Shown: positions 10,771 through 40,143 of the stretch, piece by piece | Numbering within the stretch: the stretch's first letter is position 1 | How the letters are laid out: each line of letters starts with the position of its first letter | Source of the DNA: Gammaproteobacteria bacterium | GTDB lineage: Bacteria; Pseudomonadota; Gammaproteobacteria; Methylococcales; DRLZ01 | Length of the DNA stretch: 52,140 nt | NCBI GenBank assembly: GCA_022600935.1 | Contig: JAHZJL010000020.1 | Coordinates: 1 to 52,140 of the forward strand | Direction: 5' to 3' | The notes under the pieces: model-generated | Told to the model about the DNA's origin: nothing | Databases searched by the model: none | The model's input: the letters and a program-made list of their open reading frames with translations, nothing else | Made by a program: the position numbers and the translations under genes

Positions 10771-11913
10771 TCAAGGCGTTACAATCATTTGTTTCGCAGT
10801 TGCCTCAATAAAATCTGCAGCGACACGCGCTCGATCATAAAGATTGGCATATCGTCCATATTGAATTCCGTTGTCACTCCATACAGCATCAGGCAATACA
10901 GCCATCATGTTCAGCAATAACTGATTATAATACTGTTGCTGATAGGGACTGGGGATAACCAAACCAGCATCTGCCTGCTGGATGTAACATGAATACCCAC
11001 AGACTTCCGTTGCAATTACCGGCAATCCGGCAATAATTGCCTCCAGCAAGATATTTCCGGTGTTCTCAACCAATGCAGGATGCGCAAGAATATCGGCTCC
11101 GGATAAAAACGCAGGAATATCATCACGGCCCTCGAACATATGACATTGATCAATCAATCCTAATTTTCTGGCCAATGTTGTATAGGGTCGATGATTGCGA
11201 TCACCAACCGCAACAATATGAACAGTGTTGCGAATTGACGCAGGTAATGCGTGAACAGCATTCAATGTTCTTTTCAGGCCTTTGCGTTTGAAATCAGCAC
11301 CGACCGATAGAATCACGGTCTGCTTGTCACTAAACCCAAAGTGCTGCCTCCAGTTGCTGCGGACCTGTTCACGATTCTCAGGTGCTTTTCGATTTGGATG
11401 AATCCCTGGGGGTAGCTCAATAAATCGATTTGCAGAGGTATTGTAATAGTGTTTAAAAACCGGAATCTGCCTGGTTGAAACAGCCATGATTCTGGTGTTA
11501 TGTTGCGCGTCAAAAACAGCAGCTTCATATGAAACATGATGTTGAAATCGTGGTGTTAATCGATAATACCAGAATTTTTTTGATGCTATGGCGCGATAAC
11601 AGGGATCTGCTGCATAATAAACATCCAGTCCCGGCATTTTGTTGAATCCGACAATCAAGTCATACGCTAGCTTTTGTATCCGGTTTCTGAACTGAAAAAC
11701 AAATTCCCGGTCACGATGATGGTTAAATCTTGCTGATACAGGAATTTCAATAATGTCCAGATCAGCGGGTTTTTCACCTTCCCAGTGCCGGGTAAACACA
11801 GTGACTTGATGACCACGCTTCACACACTGCTCAACGATAGCTAAAAAATTTCGCTCCAGTCCACCAAACGGGAAATAACGAAAAACCACAAATATCAAGC
11901 GCATTAGCAACAA
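10771..11913 (-). CDS. Glycosyltransferase family 4 (WaaG/RfaG-like)
   Basis: YFPFGGLER, GFNKMPGLDVYYAAD, RKG and ENTGNILLEA (EX7E) motifs. Confidence 0.9.
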   Translation of the reverse strand: MLLMRLIFVVFRYFPFGGLERNFLAIVEQCVKRGHQVTVFTRHWEGEKPADLDIIEIPVSARFNHHRDREFVFQFRNRIQKLAYDLIVGFNKMPGLDVYYAADPCYRAIASKKFWYYRLTPRFQHHVSYEAAVFDAQHNTRIMAVSTRQIPVFKHYYNTSANRFIELPPGIHPNRKAPENREQVRSNWRQHFGFSDKQTVILSVGADFKRKGLKRTLNAVHALPASIRNTVHIVAVGDRNHRPYTTLARKLGLIDQCHMFEGRDDIPAFLSGADILAHPALVENTGNILLEAIIAGLPVIATEVCGYSCYIQQADAGLVIPSPYQQQYYNQLLLNMMAVLPDAVWSDNGIQYGRYANLYDRARVAADFIEATAKQMIVTP

Positions 11914-12144
11914 TCCGTAGTCTCAACGCATTGCATTGTTCTCAACATACCCTGAACATTCCAGATGACAACATGTGTGTTAACACAATGAATACACGTT
12001 GATTCTTTTCTTGCATAACAATCTTTGAGATACTTTGCCATTTATGAAGCTGTTAAATTCTCCTTACAATCAATACTCTTGTAAACCGGAATGATTAAAT
12101 GATCAAAATTTTGCTCAATCAATCTTTCTGAAAACTGACTCTTT

Positions 12145-14208
12145 ATGCAACTCATCTATCTGGTTTTGACATATGTCCTGATTGTGTTGAATTTTGCCGG
12201 GATAACTGTCGCAACTGAGCGATTGACGCTGTCACCAGCGTGTCGACGCGTATTTGTCATTGTTATAATTTCGTTAACCCTGTTTAATCTCGAACATATT
12301 CAGGGGCTTGGGAAACTAAACTGGTTATGGCCTTTGACAACGATAGCATCTGTCCGGGTGATATATCGGCATCACAACCGACATGGTAAATCCCGCTTTT
12401 GGCGAGGTGAGCTGATTTTTTGGGGAGGGCTGTGTTACGCCCTGATCTGGCGTTTTTGTTTTCCCAATATTGACTCAGGCTCCGAACATCTAACAGATTT
12501 GTATTTCATCAGCAATTATTATAGTGGAGAGACACTGCCACCTAATGATCGTTGGCTGAGCGGTAGCCGATTTGATTTCTACTACGCTTTTCAACATTAT
12601 TGTGCGGCCTTACTGGGACGCATCTTCAATCTCGATATCGGGTTGACCATGAATGTGTCATGGACAATCCTGATCGGACTGATCGCGAGTCTGGTATGGG
12701 ATGCCAGCAGTCAAGTGATCAAACACCGCTGGCTGAAAGGATTGATACTGGGCTGCGTCCTGACCGGAGGCAATGGATTGTCCAGCTTCATGCCGTGGCT
12801 GATTCAGCATGATGAATCTGCGCAAACAGCGGTTCACGATATCGCAATTGAACGGATTTGGGCCAGCACCCGGTTTTCCGGATTATATGATCAATATGTC
12901 AACACTGATTTTGGCCGTAAACTGGTTGAATCATCCAGCCAGCCAGACCCTGGCAAACGACTGGAACTGCCGTTTGAAACCATTGCTTATCTCACGTACC
13001 TGGGAGATTACCACCCTCCTCTCGGAGGTCTGCTCATTGCACTGTGGACCCTGGCCTTAATCATGCGTCTGGAATACAAACCAATTGTATTTTCTCCTTC
13101 AAAACAGCATCTATCCCTGTTAAAACGAACACCAGAATGGCCTGCATATTTCGCTCTGGGCTTAACCCCTGCACTGACTCTCGTGACAAACACCTGGGTA
13201 TTTCCCCTGCAATGCGTATTGCTGGGCTCGTGGATGATGTATCGGCAACTGTTCAGGCGAATTGCCTGGTTCTGGATGATTGCCGGATTGCTGGCAGGTG
13301 CTTTCAGCATCTATCCTTTTCTCACTCATTTTGCCACACACTCGCTTGACACACCTATTTCAAAACTCAGTGTCGAAAATCATACGCCTTTGCTTTTATT
13401 CCTGACGATGCACTGGCCAACACTGATCTGGCTGATAGGTGGTTTGTTGCTATGGCGAACCAATCGCTGGTGCGCATGGTTGTCGTTTACACTTGCATTG
13501 TTGCTGACAATGACAGAACTGATCGTCGTTGATGATCCGCTGATCGGCAAATATCAGCGCTTCAATACAACGCTGAAATGGTGGTCGTGGTTATGGCCAG
13601 TAACGGTTACCGGAATTCTGACTCTGTTGATTGCCAAGTCCACTCGTTTCATCAAACTGTTTCTGATCATCACGATATTTCCACTATTCATCTATAGCAT
13701 GGATTTAATTCGTTACCTCATCTATGCACCCAAACCGCAAATCGGCAAATTATCTGGAAACGGCTGGCTTCTGGAAAACAAAACGAATCATGAGATCCTG
13801 GAGTATCTGGCCAATGCAGATCCGGGAGTCGTCCTGGAATCAATACCCAAAGGTGCGTATACACAATCAAGCGCTCTCACCTTGTTTGCCAATCAATCAG
13901 CTGTGATGGGATGGCCTGATCATATCAGCCAATGGCACGGGCATCTAAATTCCATTCAACACCGGGCTGACCAGGTACGCCGCTTCTATCATGCAACACT
14001 TTCCGATCCTTTGAATTTTCTGGGGCAATACCCGATTCGCTATATTGTCTGGACAAATGAAGACGAAAAACGTTATCCCGGCTTGCGATTGACGATCAAC
14101 CAGCGCATCCTACCTGACTATCAGTGGTTATCATTTTACCGTCATGGCGACCAGGAAGCCGGAGTATGGGTTCGTGCCAGACCTACACCTCCCTTTTCAG
14201 ACCGATAA
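12145..14208 (+). CDS. DUF2298 / YYY-type polytopic membrane protein, putative GT-C glycosyltransferase (paralog 1)
   Basis: SEHLTDLYF...PPNDRWLSG..FDFYY, HP, NTW, RFNTTLKW and GWPDH motifs; more than 10 hydrophobic segments plus a soluble C-terminal domain. Confidence 0.8.
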   Translation: MQLIYLVLTYVLIVLNFAGITVATERLTLSPACRRVFVIVIISLTLFNLEHIQGLGKLNWLWPLTTIASVRVIYRHHNRHGKSRFWRGELIFWGGLCYALIWRFCFPNIDSGSEHLTDLYFISNYYSGETLPPNDRWLSGSRFDFYYAFQHYCAALLGRIFNLDIGLTMNVSWTILIGLIASLVWDASSQVIKHRWLKGLILGCVLTGGNGLSSFMPWLIQHDESAQTAVHDIAIERIWASTRFSGLYDQYVNTDFGRKLVESSSQPDPGKRLELPFETIAYLTYLGDYHPPLGGLLIALWTLALIMRLEYKPIVFSPSKQHLSLLKRTPEWPAYFALGLTPALTLVTNTWVFPLQCVLLGSWMMYRQLFRRIAWFWMIAGLLAGAFSIYPFLTHFATHSLDTPISKLSVENHTPLLLFLTMHWPTLIWLIGGLLLWRTNRWCAWLSFTLALLLTMTELIVVDDPLIGKYQRFNTTLKWWSWLWPVTVTGILTLLIAKSTRFIKLFLIITIFPLFIYSMDLIRYLIYAPKPQIGKLSGNGWLLENKTNHEILEYLANADPGVVLESIPKGAYTQSSALTLFANQSAVMGWPDHISQWHGHLNSIQHRADQVRRFYHATLSDPLNFLGQYPIRYIVWTNEDEKRYPGLRLTINQRILPDYQWLSFYRHGDQEAGVWVRARPTPPFSDR

Positions 14209-14217
14209 TTCAAAGTC

Positions 14218-16236
14218 ATGAGCACAATTTATTATTTCTGCACATTTGGATTGATTCTGATCAATATTGCAGGAGTGACAATCCTGTTCAGCCGCTGGTT
14301 TCAATCCTTTGCGTTAGCGCGATCCAGTGGACTCGTGATACTCGGCTTGATGGGCTTTTTTACTGAGCATTTTTTTGGACTTGGACAAATTAACGCGATC
14401 TGGCTGCTATCGACTCCAGTTTCTTTATTTTTGATCTACAAGCAGATCCAATCGCCTCGAGCAATCCAGTTTCGAAATGCTGAAACTGTCTTTGTACTGG
14501 CAGTTCTCTACGCACTGGCCTGGCGCTGGTATTTCCCGTCAATCTATCCGACTTCAGAGCATATTACCGACTTGTATTTCATCGGAAATTATATGAATGG
14601 TGACCAATTGCCACCGCTGGATCACTGGTTTCCACCACGTCGATTCGATTTCTATTATGGTTTTCAGCACTATATGGCCGGGTTAATGGCTCGAGTATTC
14701 AGCTTGTCAGCAGGATTAACCTATAACATTGCGTTTGTTTTGTTGATGTCTTTGTCAGTCACTCTTGCCTGGGATTTTACCGGCTGTTTCCTCAACAACA
14801 GCTGGAAAAGGGGGTTGATTGTTATTACCCTGGTGTTAGGTGGAACCGGCGCAACAATTTTTGCAAACCTTGGCTATCATCTGCAATCGAACAATTTACG
14901 GACTGAAATTCATAATACTAATGAAAGCATGATTGCAAGTGCACGTTTCATTGGATCTAAAGACCAATTGCTGAATACTGTCATCGGCCAATTGCTGTTT
15001 CCCAAATCTGAAGGCTCGAAACCACAGGTTTTGCCGCTGGAGGATTTTGGTTACCAGTATTTTGTCGGTGATTATCACCCGCCTTTGGGCGGTTATCTGT
15101 TGTTATTTCTGTCATTACTCTGTATTGCCAGTCTGGAATTTTCGGATCGTCAGCACTCCTGTGACAGGTTTAGCTCAAGATCTGATGCACTCCATCAAAC
15201 CTTGCTGACTTTCACCGTTCCTGTGATGATTGCGACAAATACCTGGACGTTTCCGCTACAAGCAGTCCTGGTTGCAGGCTGGATCTGCTGGCGTTATGCT
15301 CAGCATAAAACACTGAACTGGTCTGCCTTGCTCGCTGGTGGAATCATTGGCCTCTTGCTGATCTATCCATTTCTAAGCAAATTCACAAGCCATAGCGCTG
15401 CCACCCCAATTCAATGGGTCACAACTGATTTGCATACCCCTATCAGGCAGTTTTTAGCCATGCACTGGGCATTATTACTGTTTGCCAGCATGGCTTGTCT
15501 ACTAAAACAGTACAACCGACTTGGCTTATGCTTTACCCTGATTTTTCTTGGACTATTAACTGTTTCAGAACTCATTTTTGTGGATGATCCATCAGCAGAG
15601 CATTTTCAGCGCACTAACACTGTGATGAAATGGTGGGGATGGATCTGGACAGGCGCACTGTTATCACTGAGTACACTGGTCTTAAGCAGTTCATTTCGCT
15701 GGCACCGGATTGTCGTGATTGGCACCCTTCTCATCATTAATGTCTATGCGATCAATATATATCGTTACTGGTCTGTCGCAGCGAAACATAATGCCGGACA
15801 ACTGTCTGGAGATGCTGTTTACAGCGGCAATCCGGTTACTCGTGAAATGCTGAACTTTCTGAACACAGCACCCTATGGTGTAGTATTGGAAAATTGCTAT
15901 GGTAATGCGTATACCGACTCCGGGATTTATGCAGCGTTTTCGGCCAAACCCACTGTCATGGGCTGGCCTGAACATCTGGTAACCTGGCATGGAAAAAGTC
16001 AACGTGTCTGGCGATTAAAAGACGATATACAGCAGTTTTATGGTGGTGTCTTGCCTAACCCCATCAATTGGCTAATGTCACACCAGGTCAGGTATATAGT
16101 CTGGAACCACAAAGACAGCAATCAATCTGATGCGTGGCAAACCATCAACCAGGCAATTTCAGCACAATATCATTGGCTTTCATTTCAACAGCAACACAGC
16201 AGACCAAAGGGACTCTGGGTTTACCGGAAAGAATGA
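14218..16236 (+). CDS. DUF2298 / YYY-type polytopic membrane protein, putative GT-C glycosyltransferase (paralog 2)
   Basis: SEHITDLYF...PPLDHWFPP..FDFYY, GDYHPPLGG, TNTWTFP, RTNTVMKWW and GWPEH; colinear with the upstream gene. Confidence 0.8.
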   Translation: MSTIYYFCTFGLILINIAGVTILFSRWFQSFALARSSGLVILGLMGFFTEHFFGLGQINAIWLLSTPVSLFLIYKQIQSPRAIQFRNAETVFVLAVLYALAWRWYFPSIYPTSEHITDLYFIGNYMNGDQLPPLDHWFPPRRFDFYYGFQHYMAGLMARVFSLSAGLTYNIAFVLLMSLSVTLAWDFTGCFLNNSWKRGLIVITLVLGGTGATIFANLGYHLQSNNLRTEIHNTNESMIASARFIGSKDQLLNTVIGQLLFPKSEGSKPQVLPLEDFGYQYFVGDYHPPLGGYLLLFLSLLCIASLEFSDRQHSCDRFSSRSDALHQTLLTFTVPVMIATNTWTFPLQAVLVAGWICWRYAQHKTLNWSALLAGGIIGLLLIYPFLSKFTSHSAATPIQWVTTDLHTPIRQFLAMHWALLLFASMACLLKQYNRLGLCFTLIFLGLLTVSELIFVDDPSAEHFQRTNTVMKWWGWIWTGALLSLSTLVLSSSFRWHRIVVIGTLLIINVYAINIYRYWSVAAKHNAGQLSGDAVYSGNPVTREMLNFLNTAPYGVVLENCYGNAYTDSGIYAAFSAKPTVMGWPEHLVTWHGKSQRVWRLKDDIQQFYGGVLPNPINWLMSHQVRYIVWNHKDSNQSDAWQTINQAISAQYHWLSFQQQHSRPKGLWVYRKE

Positions 16237-16661
16237 ACGTTTTTAAATTTAATCAGGCAGTTATAATTCAATTTTTCAAGTTTGCGTCAATGGGAGCTAT
16301 AGGGACAATTGCACAATACTGTGTGCTGTGGGCCGGAGTCGAAATTTGGTTCTGGGCTGCTTCATTATCTTCCGCAATCGGCTATCTGGTCGGGTCAATT
16401 GTCAATTATGGATTAAATTATTACATCACATTTAACAGTAACCAGACTCACGGCAAAACGATGCCTAGATTCTATCTGGTGGTAGTAGTTGGTTGGTCAA
16501 TAAATACGGGTATTATGTGGGTTCTGGCCGATCAATTGTTATGGAATTACTGGATTGCTCAATTAATCGCGACAGCTACCGGACTGTTATGGAATTTTGT
16601 GGGTAGTCGGAAATGGGTGTTCAAATTACAGTCAATCAAGCACAAGGCAAACATTAAATGA
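16233..16661 (+). CDS. GtrA-family flippase
   Basis: QFFKFASMGAIGT, NYGLNYYITF and WNFVGSRKWVF; four TM helices; ATGA overlap with the upstream stop. Confidence 0.9.
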   Translation: MNVFKFNQAVIIQFFKFASMGAIGTIAQYCVLWAGVEIWFWAASLSSAIGYLVGSIVNYGLNYYITFNSNQTHGKTMPRFYLVVVVGWSINTGIMWVLADQLLWNYWIAQLIATATGLLWNFVGSRKWVFKLQSIKHKANIK

Positions 16662-17680
16662 ATGAATCTTTCAATACTGAACAATCAACTCAGACAAATA
16701 AACCATTGATTTCAGTGGTAGTGCCAGCTTATAACGAAGCGGATGTCATCCAGGTTTTTTACGAACGCATGTGCAAACTTTTCGATTCATTATCAGATTA
16801 CTGTTGCGAGATGATTATTGTCAATGACGGTAGCCAGGACCTGACTCAGTCCATAATTGAACAACTAAGATCAAAGGATAATCGTATTGCAAGTATCAGT
16901 CTGACCAGAAATTTCGGTAAGGAAATTGCCATGACTGCCGGGCTTGACCATGCAAAAGGTGACGCCATCATAATAATCGATGTTGATCTGCAAGACCCTC
17001 CAGAACTGATTGTTAAGTTTATTGAAGAATGGCAAAACGGCTATGACATCGTTTATGCAAGACGCACTGCCCGAGATGGTGAAACCTGGCTCAAGATCTT
17101 TACTGCCGAAATGTTTTATAAAGTCATGGATAAAATTTCCGAGCGAGTCAAAATCCCCCGGAATACTGGTGATTTCCGACTCATGAGTCGGCGTTCTGTC
17201 GATGCGCTGTTGCAACTCCGCGAACACCATCGTTTTATGAAAGGGTTGTATGCCTGGGTTGGGTTTCCATCAAAAGCGATCGATTATCGTCGCGATCCGC
17301 GTGCTGCCGGAAGCAGTAAATTCAATTACTGGGGTCTCTGGAATTTCGCTCTGGAAGGCATCACATCATTCACTGTTATTCCACTGAAAATAGCAACCTA
17401 TCTGGGCTTATTAACATCATTGTCAGCATTCAGTTTTGGACTGTTTATCATTATTAAAACCCTGTTATGGGGAGACTCAGTGCAAGGTTTTCCGACATTG
17501 ATGGTCACCATTTTATTTCTAGGTGGTGTGCAACTTTTTTTTATTGGAGTCATGGGAGAATATCTGGGACGGATATTCGGTGAAACTAAACAAAGGCCGC
17601 TTTATCTGATACAACGTTATAGCCCTTCTCACTACTGCCCGGTTGAGCAAAATCCAACTCCGTCTGCCAAACAGGCTTAA
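16658..17680 (+). CDS. GtrB-like polyprenol-phosphate glycosyltransferase (GT2)
   Basis: VVPAYNE, NDGSQD, RNFGKE, DVDLQDPP, GDFRL, two C-terminal TM helices, GEYLGRIF..TKQRPLY. Confidence 0.93.
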   Translation: MNESFNTEQSTQTNKPLISVVVPAYNEADVIQVFYERMCKLFDSLSDYCCEMIIVNDGSQDLTQSIIEQLRSKDNRIASISLTRNFGKEIAMTAGLDHAKGDAIIIIDVDLQDPPELIVKFIEEWQNGYDIVYARRTARDGETWLKIFTAEMFYKVMDKISERVKIPRNTGDFRLMSRRSVDALLQLREHHRFMKGLYAWVGFPSKAIDYRRDPRAAGSSKFNYWGLWNFALEGITSFTVIPLKIATYLGLLTSLSAFSFGLFIIIKTLLWGDSVQGFPTLMVTILFLGGVQLFFIGVMGEYLGRIFGETKQRPLYLIQRYSPSHYCPVEQNPTPSAKQA

Positions 17681-29801: not shown

Positions 29802-30626
29802 ATGCCACAGAACATATCAGTGATTATACCAACCTATAATCGTGCAAAACTGTTAAGCCGGTCACTAAATTCCGTATTGCAACAAACATGCCCCCCCTCT
29901 GAAATAATTGTAGTCGACGATGGCTCAACTGACTATACAGAACAACTCATCAAGCATGACTACCCGCAAGTCATCTATCATCATCAACCACAGCTGGGGG
30001 TGAGCGCCGCCCGTAATCAAGGGATACAACTGGCCAGTCACTCCTGGCTGGCTTTTCTGGATTCAGACGATGAATGGTTACCGGACAAGCTCCAGAAACA
30101 GCAAGCCATGATTGGCGGAAATTCTAATGTAAAAATTTGTCATAGCGATGAAATCTGGGTACGCAACGGTATTCGAGTCAACCCACATTTAAAACATCAA
30201 AAAAAAGGTGGCTGGATTTTTCAGCATTGTCTGCCGCTGTGTGCAATCTCACCTTCTGCAGTGTTGATTCATCGATCTGTATTCGATACTGTCGGGATGT
30301 TTGATGAATCCTTACCAGCATGTGAAGATTATGATTTATGGCTGAGAATGACGTGTCAATATCCGGTCTGTTATATCGATCAACCACTGATCAAAAAATA
30401 TGGTGGGCATGACGATCAACTATCCAGACAATATTGGGGCATGGATCGGTTTCGCATTCAGTCAATCGTGAATATACTCGACCATCAACAATTATCGCTA
30501 CAGGACAGATTGGCCGCTCACCGGATTCTGCATAAAAAATTATTGATTTATATACAAGGTGCGCTAAAACGGAACAAATCCGAAGAAGCTATGAAATATC
30601 AACAAATTCAGCGGCGTTTTGAATGA
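29802..30626 (+). CDS. Glycosyltransferase family 2
   Basis: IIPTYNR, VDDGSTD, FLDSDD and EDYDLWLR motifs. Confidence 0.92.
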   Translation: MPQNISVIIPTYNRAKLLSRSLNSVLQQTCPPSEIIVVDDGSTDYTEQLIKHDYPQVIYHHQPQLGVSAARNQGIQLASHSWLAFLDSDDEWLPDKLQKQQAMIGGNSNVKICHSDEIWVRNGIRVNPHLKHQKKGGWIFQHCLPLCAISPSAVLIHRSVFDTVGMFDESLPACEDYDLWLRMTCQYPVCYIDQPLIKKYGGHDDQLSRQYWGMDRFRIQSIVNILDHQQLSLQDRLAAHRILHKKLLIYIQGALKRNKSEEAMKYQQIQRRFE

Positions 30627-31453
30627 ACAACTCTGAGCATCGGTTTTCGATTCATTTGATCGCTGCACTTGACTGTGAAGCCAAACCGCTGATATCAAAC
30701 TACCAGCTTAAACGCTGTATCGATGACAGCGCATTTGCTGTATTTCGAAATGATACGATGACCTTGACTGTATCCGGGGTTGGCAAACTGGCGGCAGCCA
30801 ATGCTGTCGGTTATACCCAGGGGCGTTATGGTTTTGGGCAATCCGGGGCCTGGTTGAACATAGGCATTGCAGGGCATCCGGATCTGGATATCGGGGAATG
30901 CAGAATTGCACATAAAGTCCTTGATTCAGAGACAAATACAAGCTGGTACCCCGCTCTGCTCCCTGGTCATATTAACACCTCTGAACTGGTCTGCGTGAGC
31001 CAGGCCGAAACAGAATATCTCGATGATTCAATGTATGACATGGAGTCTGCTGGATTTATTTCATCTGCTACTCGCTTCCAGACTCAGGAACTGGTTCACA
31101 GCCTGAAAATCATTTCAGACAATCATAACAACCCGGTATATCGTTTCGATAAAAAAACTGTCACCAGCCTCATAACAGATCGCATTGATACGATTGATTG
31201 CATAATCAACGAACTCGACAATCGTAGTCAATACATCAGAAACAATTCGCTGGAACTAGTCGAGACGTTTAATCAGACCTGGCATTTCTCAAGACATCAA
31301 TATACACAATTAAATCAACTCTTGAATAACTGGAGTTGCATGTCTCCAAACACGTTGCCAGAGCCAGAGAATCTGAAGCACCTGACACATTCCAAACAAG
31401 TCATTGCCTGGTTAAAAGAACAGGTCGCACAGGTGCCTGTACGATTTGATTAA
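30623..31453 (+). CDS. Nucleoside phosphorylase / nucleosidase-fold protein (PNP_UDP / MTAN / HpnG-like)
   Basis: AL..EA, SGVGK, NIGIAG, DMES and KIISD motifs; ATGA overlap with the GT2 gene. Confidence 0.75.
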   Translation: MNNSEHRFSIHLIAALDCEAKPLISNYQLKRCIDDSAFAVFRNDTMTLTVSGVGKLAAANAVGYTQGRYGFGQSGAWLNIGIAGHPDLDIGECRIAHKVLDSETNTSWYPALLPGHINTSELVCVSQAETEYLDDSMYDMESAGFISSATRFQTQELVHSLKIISDNHNNPVYRFDKKTVTSLITDRIDTIDCIINELDNRSQYIRNNSLELVETFNQTWHFSRHQYTQLNQLLNNWSCMSPNTLPEPENLKHLTHSKQVIAWLKEQVAQVPVRFD

Positions 31454-38073: not shown

Positions 38074-39867
38074 TTACTGTCTGCGTATTACCACCGGATC
38101 GACCCCGTACTCAGAAACGATCTGAGCAAAAACCATTGAATCATTGATCACCATGACATCAATAATTTCAGTGACATGAGCGGTTTCGGCATCAAAAGAT
38201 GTTTCTTCTTCTAAACGCATGACATGACCTACAACATTCGACCAGTTGTGATTGATTGCACGACTAGCCAATTGTATGGTGTAGATCTCAGAATCAGCTT
38301 GTAAAACCATGTGCTCGCTAACGGATGGTGTTACAATCGCTATATATGCTCCGTGTTCACGAGTATGCCAGCTGCCAAGCAGACTTTCCTGTTCAAACAG
38401 ACTGACCTGGAACGATTTGCCAGACACTTGACGAACCCTTAGTGCTGCAGTGTCGGCACCATTTGCCGTTTGTAAGCTGGTAAACACATAGGGACTTATC
38501 GCAAATTCCTGGTCAAACACAAGCTCCTTCCAGGCACCGTTTCCCTGAATATCAAACTGTCCAACCTGAATCATGGTTCCATCTGAAAAATTATAGACTC
38601 CAGGTTCGACGAACAGATAGGCTGCCTGCTCCATGGAATGCAGTTTATCCTGATAATTCCATTCTCTGAATCTGAGTTGTATTGTGAGAAGATCGGCATC
38701 TGTATTAACCTGAATCACTCCCGGTTGCACTCCTTCACTGGTTGGTACACCTGCAATCAAAACCAGAGGGTTCGGGGTTGATGATTGTGTGATCGTTGTC
38801 CACTGATGATCAAGATTAATCACATCAGCAAACAACTCAAAAGAGTGGTCAGGAATACTGAACACAGGCAGGTTTTCGTCAATATCCGGATCAATAGCGG
38901 TAACGTCATAATTAAATGATTGCCTAACTCCTTCAACGATGACATCTTTGACACGGACATGATAGACAACATCTGAATTTCCTTTGACTCTGGAAACATC
39001 GATACCGGGTTCCCAGCTAATGGTATTTTCCGGTGCAGTCAACAAATCCGTGCGTGGTGGTTGTGATCGAAAAATTACGTTCAGATTGATGGCCTCCCCT
39101 GTATCAGCTTCCATTTCAATTGATGAATTGCTGAAATCGGCATTAGCGTAGGAAAACGACCAGCGCGGAAATACGAGTTGATAGGGTACATAACCAGGTG
39201 GTGGCCAGCTCACAAATCCATCACGTGTTTCAGGTCTGGTTAAAAAAACCTGATCGTCTTGTATAACAGTTGCATGAGCCGGAAGAAAACCAAATTGATC
39301 TGGAATCACATTTCCGGTACCCATTTCGCGTGTTTGAGGATAAATAATCCAGCGTCTGTGCCCAACGGAACGATTATTTTCGCCGGGGTCTTTCATTAAT
39401 AAGGTGATAGCCTGATATCCATGTGTCCCCAACCCCAAATTTGAACGTCCTGCCGCTTCCAGGCCTGTTTTTGTAAAACAAGCCCAGGATTCAGATGGAG
39501 TATGGCTAAGATCATGGTTGGCCGACATCATCAAGGCTGCTGATCTGGCGATTGAATTCAATTCTGGATTGAACTTGACATCGGCATTCACTCCCGCCAT
39601 TGACCGAAAATAATTAATTCGTAATAAAATCGCCTGTTTATAGGTCTCGGAAGTCACTCCAGCCTGACATTCGGAAATATCGCCAATCCACTGTGGTTCT
39701 GTACCATTTGCCGCCAGGTAAACAGTCTTGAATAGATTTCTCACTGCTTCCCGGTCATGGATGTCTACTACCTGAATTGCAAAACACTGTGAGCTGAGCA
39801 AAACAATCAGGTAAAACACGCATTGCAACACAGCGTTTTTAACTGCAGGCAGTTCTAATGCTGGCAT
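38074..39867 (-). CDS. Secreted CAP/SCP-domain protein with C-terminal beta-repeat (H-type-lectin-like) region
   Basis: Signal peptide ending SQCFA; RINYFRSMAG, LSHTP and GHRRWII CAP motifs. Start at 39867 or 39915. Confidence 0.75.
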   Translation of the reverse strand: MPALELPAVKNAVLQCVFYLIVLLSSQCFAIQVVDIHDREAVRNLFKTVYLAANGTEPQWIGDISECQAGVTSETYKQAILLRINYFRSMAGVNADVKFNPELNSIARSAALMMSANHDLSHTPSESWACFTKTGLEAAGRSNLGLGTHGYQAITLLMKDPGENNRSVGHRRWIIYPQTREMGTGNVIPDQFGFLPAHATVIQDDQVFLTRPETRDGFVSWPPPGYVPYQLVFPRWSFSYANADFSNSSIEMEADTGEAINLNVIFRSQPPRTDLLTAPENTISWEPGIDVSRVKGNSDVVYHVRVKDVIVEGVRQSFNYDVTAIDPDIDENLPVFSIPDHSFELFADVINLDHQWTTITQSSTPNPLVLIAGVPTSEGVQPGVIQVNTDADLLTIQLRFREWNYQDKLHSMEQAAYLFVEPGVYNFSDGTMIQVGQFDIQGNGAWKELVFDQEFAISPYVFTSLQTANGADTAALRVRQVSGKSFQVSLFEQESLLGSWHTREHGAYIAIVTPSVSEHMVLQADSEIYTIQLASRAINHNWSNVVGHVMRLEEETSFDAETAHVTEIIDVMVINDSMVFAQIVSEYGVDPVVIRRQ

Positions 39868-40143
39868 TGCTTGATGATTCCGGTACAAATTCAAAATAAC
39901 ATCCACCATGGACAACTATTGTCTTGTCTCTTGTCAGAATAAAAGTGACATCAAATCAGGGTCATAGTTCTGCAATTATAGACAATGATTAAACTGATTG
40001 ACATCATCACCGGATTTAAAAAGGTTCGTTGCCATACAGAATACACGTTATAAAAAATATATTTTTTAATACTTATCTGAGCTATAAAAACATTTTATGT
40101 GTTGCATATTTCCTTAAAAATAAACAAATGCTGTCAATTTGCT

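Follow-up and report, generated by a model that had tools for sequence, protein, structure and literature searches.

In the scheme named after GtrA, GtrB and Gtr*, a sugar carried on a lipid phosphate serves as the donor, the lipid-linked sugar is flipped, and the sugar is transferred outside the cytoplasm; in the article that sets out this scheme, GtrA is termed a "proposed" flippase, and other three-component glycosylation systems are described as well (PMC11127046). According to a second article, one GtrB-type synthase of Streptococcus mutans, PgfS, serves two paralogous glycosyltransferases of the GT-C class, PgfM1 and PgfM2, from one operon (PMC12041528). The present work concerns an operon of comparable composition in a 52,140-nucleotide stretch of DNA (hereafter "the window") from a gammaproteobacterium of the order Methylococcales (DRLZ01; assembly GCA_022600935.1, contig JAHZJL010000020.1, positions 1 to 52,140 of the forward strand). 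Two paralogous proteins of the family DUF2298, here called YYYa (the upstream one) and YYYb (the downstream one), are encoded ahead of gtrA and gtrB, and the four genes probably form a three-component extracytoplasmic glycosylation operon with two GT-C transferases. The features of the locus are as follows (aa, amino acids; ORF, open reading frame).

10771-11913, minus strand: GT4 gene, a waaG homologue (ORF listing)
11914-12144, no strand: divergent spacer between waaG and YYYa, 231 bp, presumed promoter region (read from sequence)
12145-14208, plus strand: YYYa, 687 aa, DUF2298, "upstream" clade, predicted GT-C fold (ORF listing, Pfam)
14218-16236, plus strand: YYYb, 672 aa, DUF2298, "downstream or single" clade, predicted GT-C fold (ORF listing, Pfam)
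16233-16661, plus strand: gtrA, 142 aa from ATG, GtrA family, proposed flippase of the lipid-linked sugar
16658-17680, plus strand: gtrB, 340 aa, by homology a polyprenyl-phosphate glycosyltransferase (GT2 domain and two C-terminal hydrophobic segments)

The operon's junctions point to translational coupling: the stop codon TAA of YYYa (14206-14208) and the ATG of YYYb (14218) are separated by a 9-bp gap, and ATGA overlaps join YYYb to gtrA (16233-16236) and gtrA to gtrB (16658-16661). The ORF listed for gtrA begins with GTG at 16134, and the 142 aa are counted from the ATG at 16233. A first-pass annotation of the window had described the same tight operon, and its coordinates and junctions agree with ours. 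As in the GtrA/GtrB/Gtr* systems of Shigella and Salmonella, a GtrB-type synthase, a GtrA-family protein and a partner of predicted GT-C fold are found together; unlike in those systems, the transferases are DUF2298 proteins, are two in number and are placed first in the operon. In further contrast to Gtr* O-antigen glucosylation, the operon has housekeeping neighbours and no prophage context, and a Pfam scan of the window found no phage genes among its flanking genes.

The remaining known systems resemble the locus in part. The ArnC/ArnT pair (GT83), which acts in the aminoarabinose modification of lipid A, is close in structure, in that no structural match of either YYY protein exceeds ArnT in Z (18.1 and 15.7), the likeness extending over the membrane portion as well as the periplasmic domain at the C-terminus, and ArnC is homologous to the GtrB of the window (150 bits). 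Unlike ArnT, however, the YYY proteins give no PMT_2/ArnT sequence signal at E <= 10 and carry three extra N-terminal helices before the first transmembrane helix (TM1); moreover, the operon contains no other arn genes and its GtrB is far nearer to GtrB than to ArnC. The S. mutans Pgf system shares with the window one synthase and two paralogous GT-C enzymes in an operon, and the GT2 protein finds its best NCBIfam match in PgfS (299 bits, under the model cut-off of 500), whereas PgfM1 and PgfM2 belong to the YfhO family and the Pgf system is Gram-positive, includes an epimerase and has Ser/Thr-rich protein regions as acceptors. The likeness to STT3, AglB and PglB (GT66) is at the level of the fold only, since neither YYYa nor YYYb has a Pfam match to STT3 or a WWD motif, and the synthase of the window would make a lipid-monophosphate monosaccharide, not a lipid-diphosphate oligosaccharide. 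In Rhizobium, the paralogous GT-C enzymes RgtA, RgtB and RgtC, together with RgtE, rely on one lipid-phosphate-linked sugar donor, each enzyme acting at a different position of the lipopolysaccharide (LPS) core; they belong to a GT-C family other than DUF2298. The logic of the system in the window is thus like that of GtrA/GtrB/Gtr*, ArnC/ArnT and Pgf, but its transferases lie outside those families by sequence.

Both YYYa and YYYb match PF10060 (DUF2298) with 79.3 and 96.8 bits, respectively, against a gathering cut-off of 27.8, the best stretch covering profile positions 20-384 of 488. On this point the first-pass annotation was right; with respect to TIGR03662 (Chlor_Arch_YYY), which it coupled to DUF2298, a qualification is needed, because the two proteins score 91.1 and 128 bits and miss the curated cut-off of 300.25, and they therefore form a homologous but distant proteobacterial subfamily of that model. 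Neither protein contains the YYY triplet, and both contain an invariant F-D-F-Y-Y with Y146 and Y147. They are 38% identical to each other over 679 aligned columns (E 6e-142). No further DUF2298 gene was found in the genome, which is 85% complete and in which no PMT_2 gene was found either. The family itself is large, with 3065 cluster representatives found with the profile, and a PF10060 protein of Haloferax volcanii served as a positive control of the profile search. The Protein Atlas yielded only clusters labelled "DUF2298 domain-containing protein," and a search of the full-text literature found two incidental mentions of DUF2298, none of TIGR03662, PF10060 or Chlor_Arch_YYY, and no functional study. 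AglS, a characterized archaeal mannosyltransferase that uses dolichyl-phosphate-mannose, might conceivably be a DUF2298 protein. AglS has been suggested to be a distant relative of the PMTs (PMC4973528).

The AlphaFold2 models of YYYb (predicted local distance difference test, pLDDT, 94.4; predicted template modelling score, pTM, 0.94) and YYYa (pLDDT 89.4; pTM 0.92) are confident, and in both a membrane module of several helices is predicted, with an extended first outer loop. Foldseek returned 20 matches for YYYb at E <= 0.001, every one of them a GT-C enzyme or an oligosaccharyltransferase complex (DPY19, STT3, AglB, PglB, AftA and ALG12), and the top structural matches of both models are GT-C enzymes only. 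A GT-C fold is hence predicted for both proteins, as the first-pass annotation had anticipated when it suggested a comparison with STT3/PglB, PMT and ArnT.

The second line of evidence is the recurrence of the gene neighborhood. A scan of one genome per species, with search patterns derived from sequences of the YYYb type, found 132 relatives, and the best 79 loci were kept; these loci are mutually related and are not independent counts, and they span at least 13 named families. Judged by record title, all but one (78/79) are from Pseudomonadota, the carriers including Chitinibacteraceae, Methylococcales, Psychromonadaceae, Motilimonas, Cellvibrionaceae and several Burkholderiales. Linkage was counted in those 69 loci that extend 1.5 kb or more downstream, and a GtrB-like gene lies on the same strand within 3.5 kb in 53 of them. 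A GtrA-like gene accompanies it in 39 of these 53 loci and a UPF0104/LPG_synthase_TM gene in 13 (both in 2, neither in 3), so that a flippase-like gene of one kind or the other is present in 50. The linkage of DUF2298 to GtrB is kept across at least six gene orders, the commonest being the YYY-YYY-gtrA-gtrB order of the window (10 loci, and 4 more with an extra 668-aa gene), which is shared, for instance, by Chitinilyticum aquatile DSM 21506 and a Jeongeupia species (L005 and L016). This recurrent linkage to GtrB suggests that the YYY proteins may use a polyprenyl-phosphate-linked donor. Together with the predicted folds, it supports the earlier proposal that DUF2298 is the lipid-linked-sugar transferase of a periplasmic pathway, and the recurrence of gtrA and gtrB beside DUF2298 that the proposal implied is what the survey found.

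The loci also vary in their composition. In 13 loci UPF0104/LPG_synthase_TM replaces GtrA, and in the 13 gene orders that contain it an FAD amine-oxidase-family gene comes next (for example L013:14824-15801 and L013:13505-14827, both on the minus strand; also L022, L033, L039, L040, L043, L045, L048, L053, L055, L068 and L072, among others); the oxidase-family enzyme might modify the lipid-linked sugar. In six loci, a DIE2/ALG10-family GT-C gene (420-460 aa, 117.7 bits) precedes a single YYY gene (L027:6550-7923, plus strand; also L037, L041, L046, L056 and L061), and because it occupies the position of YYYa, a GT-C enzyme of another family can evidently fill that slot. In Deefgea and Andreprevotia loci, the gene after gtrB encodes a protein of 666-668 aa that matches nothing in Pfam (L013:11390-13396, plus strand; also L012, L014 and L023); it is possibly a third membrane transferase that has diverged further.

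On the donor side, the product of gtrB matches Pfam Glycos_transf_2 (118.2 bits) and can be aligned from end to end with 5ekp, the solved GtrB of Synechocystis (360 bits, E 1e-106; residues 17-331 on 27-339), a far stronger match than that to ArnC. It also contains a DVDLQD motif and hydrophobic segments at residues 247-270 and 277-303. Because of these features and the match to PgfS, the protein is assigned by homology as a polyprenyl-phosphate glycosyltransferase. The product of gtrA matches PF04138 (GtrA_DPMS_TM) over profile positions 1-117 of 117 (91.4 bits), and the two gene assignments of the first-pass annotation are thereby upheld. A second GtrB/ArnC-like GT2 gene, 32% identical, is present in the genome on a small contig (G000:C278:1-2317, L097), where it is truncated at the contig end and is followed by an asparagine-synthase-family gene.

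Tandem YYY copies occur in 43 of the 79 loci. In a tree built with FastTree from 114 full-length proteins (those under 600 aa were left out), all 41 upstream copies, the a-type, fall on one side of a branch with support of 98, and all downstream and single copies, the b-type, fall on the other; FastTree support is less reliable than that from a careful search. The a and b subtrees are mirrored, with, for example, the same Methylococcales/Chitinilyticum, Jeongeupia/Andreprevotia and Psychromonas/Motilimonas groupings in each. The clade split and the mirrored subtrees thus indicate that the pair stems from a single old duplication. In this sample, which was gathered with b-derived patterns, the a-type never occurs without an adjoining b-type (41/41), and the b-type stands alone in 27 loci with room upstream. 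In two loci, the downstream YYY gene is broken into two ORFs (L079:6040-8044 and L080:8001-9994), which could reflect a frameshift, a pseudogene or an assembly error.

The structural alignments of the YYY models mostly start near residue 81, and the helix at residues 82-105 would therefore correspond to the canonical TM1 of GT-C enzymes, the three helices before it being an N-terminal addition. It would follow that the next loop is the first outer loop, with E114 and D118 at its start; these residues lie 9-13 residues past the helix aligned with TM1 of the solved enzymes, and 95% or more of the alignment rows keep them, among the 41 of the a-type as among the 72 of the b-type. In GT-C enzymes, the beginning of that loop carries a catalytic acidic residue. 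Across these 113 sequences, 55 columns hold the same residue at 95% or more in both clades, and the near-invariant positions include E50, H51, E114, D118, D135, R159, R243, E275, H287, E451, D457, R465, K471, E558 and H586. Only a few positions are particular to one clade, namely D110, F473 and S481 for the a-type and Y169, M470 and G474 for the b-type. Because both clades keep the shared columns, E114 and D118 included, both copies look active, and neither YYYa nor YYYb resembles a dead enzyme.

The data show the gene order, the family membership, the predicted folds, the recurrent linkage and the clade structure; from these we infer a scheme for how the two copies catalyze transfer and share the work, which donor they use and on which side of the membrane their active sites lie. 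GtrB would transfer a sugar from a nucleotide sugar to undecaprenyl phosphate on the membrane's cytoplasmic side, the sugar being a hexose or an N-acetylhexosamine, with glucose as the simplest guess, and GtrA would help the lipid-linked sugar to reach the periplasmic face. There, YYYa and YYYb, both as catalytically competent GT-C enzymes, would move the sugar from the lipid carrier to an envelope acceptor by means of the conserved E114 and D118 in the first periplasmic loop. YYYb would be the core enzyme, because its type stands alone in many genomes, and YYYa would be a derived partner, present only with YYYb, which most probably attaches this sugar either to a second site or onto the one already added. 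By analogy, a scheme like that of the Rgt enzymes is the model that we favor for the two proteins.

An obligate heterodimer of YYYa and YYYb, forming one enzyme for one acceptor as in Pmt1-Pmt2 or EmbA-EmbB, would explain why the a-type has no locus of its own, why the two subtrees are mirrored and why the genes are 9 bp apart, and the solved GT-C heterodimers 6p25 (Pmt1-Pmt2) and 7bvc (EmbA-EmbB) are among the structural matches of the YYY models. However, the many lone b-type genes show no need of a partner, the candidate catalytic residues kept in both clades fit two independent enzymes equally well, and the b-derived search patterns could have missed a lone a-type gene; a complex prediction with shortened chains (YYYa 1-499 and YYYb 1-492, alignments of 38 rows) gave no answer (score 0.00), which speaks neither for nor against binding. 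A heterodimer of this kind seems rather unlikely to us. Polymerization is another conceivable activity, whereby one protein would prime and the other elongate a homoglycan of the periplasm or the cell surface, drawing directly on the lipid-linked monosaccharide, like the mycobacterial Emb, Aft and Mpt enzymes. Processive and single-addition GT-C enzymes are not distinguishable at this level of analysis, but the neighborhood has no recurrent gene for export, anchoring or chain length and loci with a single YYY gene are common, which makes this reading improbable. It is very improbable that the YYY proteins are not glycosyltransferases at all but a non-catalytic scaffold like PIG-U, a ligase or polymerase of undecaprenyl-diphosphate-linked glycans, or a transporter: invariant acidic residues are found where GT-C enzymes hold their catalytic residue, many conserved charged residues are common to the 113 sequences, and the tight recurrent coupling is with a monosaccharide-lipid synthase, not with genes for undecaprenyl-diphosphate-linked glycans.

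Among the possible acceptors, an LPS-type glycan (core, lipid A or O-antigen) is the leading candidate, although somewhat less likely than not, and another envelope molecule is considered unlikely. In favor of LPS, WaaG and three genes of the Wzy_C family are encoded in the genome, and the operon and waaG diverge from one and the same spacer. The first-pass annotation had called this neighbor a divergent WaaG-like GT4 gene, and the call is borne out: the product matches Pfam Glycos_transf_1 (91.2 bits), aligns over its full length with the solved WaaG 8b5s (365 bits, E 3e-108, residues 5-371 on 3-371) and matches Escherichia coli RfaG 2iv7 (332 bits), and is by homology a true WaaG, an LPS core alpha-1,3-glucosyltransferase type. 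It was also tried as a member of the module and rejected, since neither waaG (sought by tblastn) nor the other flanking genes of the window were found near the related operons in any of the 79 loci. Furthermore, waaG is a single-copy gene in all four genus genomes searched, and in one congener (G002) it adjoins a two-component system instead. Its adjacency is consequently local and at best a weak hint of LPS, and waaG is probably not part of the conserved module. Glycosylation of periplasmic or surface proteins by the pair, O- or N-linked and in the manner of PMT, YfhO or oligosaccharyltransferase enzymes, is rather unlikely as well; poly-serine-linker acceptors are not supported by the count of Ser/Thr-rich ORFs, which in this genome, taken without a control genome, is 8 of 3013 (20-residue window with at least 60% Ser+Thr).

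Several observations weigh against the proposed scheme as a whole. A profile search against Protein Data Bank sequences gave 0 matches for the YYY proteins at E <= 10, that is, no solved GT-C enzyme was recognized by sequence, and Pfam and NCBIfam at the same threshold gave nothing beyond DUF2298 and TIGR03662, so that no other GT-C family was matched, PMT_2/PMT (GT83, GT39) included; the GT-C assignment is for this reason based on the predicted folds. The periplasmic placement of the conserved residues and their clustering were deduced solely from the start points of the structural alignments. In 16 of the 69 loci, no GtrB-like gene is nearby. The loaded sugar cannot be derived from the homology of GtrB, because PgfS, GtrB and ArnC use different sugars. 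As for LPS in particular, the hint from waaG is weak for the reasons given above, and DUF2298 is also common in Archaea and Chloroflexota, lineages without LPS. It is possible, although we are doubtful, that DUF2298 constitutes a new functional GT-C family and that the a/b pair acts unlike the known Gram-negative three-component systems. Under this possibility, one candidate role would be the glycosylation of periplasmic or surface proteins from a lipid-monophosphate sugar in a manner like that of oligosaccharyltransferases or PMTs, and another would be a new envelope glycan built outside the cytoplasm by a two-enzyme, possibly heterodimeric, machine.

The module is rare in this class. A search of 30 relatives, 3 from its genus and 27 from its order, did not find it. 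Among 299 other genomes sampled evenly across the class, a single one carried it (E <= 1e-20), with one additional genome left unscored. The flanks of the operon in the window are prfA, prmC, a JAB protein gene and nadE, and the rest of the window consists of housekeeping genes. Within-genus synteny could not define an empty site that would mark the operon as an insertion, since nadE, prmC and waaG are scattered in G002, hundreds of kb apart. The G+C content of the operon (0.43-0.46) is the same as that of the window. A search for AMO/pmoA gave no match, but its control gave none anywhere either, so that it says nothing on whether the bacterium is a methanotroph. The spacer at 11914-12144 holds just weak sigma-70-like matches (9 of 12 positions), and promoter-like sites in the scanned region are fewer than in shuffled sequences (12 vs. 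17.2); terminator-like sites number 14 vs. 7.2 in shuffles, with none convincingly placed.

Elsewhere in the window, the G+C content falls to 0.35-0.38 between 40001 and 46000, compared with about 0.44 elsewhere, in a stretch that spans a response regulator, a 934-aa hybrid histidine kinase and a sigma-54 activator. At 29802-31453 (plus strand), a 274-aa GT2 gene overlaps by 4 bp with a 276-aa ORF without a Pfam match, forming another small glycosylation pair with no relation to the DUF2298 operon. A 613-aa protein encoded at 38074-39915 (minus strand) has a CAP (cysteine-rich secretory protein) domain as its sole Pfam match.

The pathway logic described here is textbook, and the gain is a new enzyme family and an acceptor to find rather than a new principle. 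What is new is a distant proteobacterial subfamily of DUF2298, its apparent origin by a single old a/b duplication in which the a-type depends on the b-type, the apparent activity of both copies, the identification of waaG as an unlinked neighbor, and the rarity of the module. By placing DUF2298 through fold and gene linkage as a probable lipid-linked-sugar transferase, the analysis provides the family with a function that can be tested. Culturable, non-pathogenic bacteria (Chitinilyticum, Jeongeupia, Iodobacter, Motilimonas and Psychromonas), in which knock-outs are practical, are among the carriers of the proteobacterial subfamily, and the rule that the a-type is never found without the b-type offers a simple genetic design. 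If DUF2298 is indeed a new functional GT-C family, these culturable carriers would provide the first tractable entry into a family that extends across Archaea, Chloroflexota and many uncultured lineages.

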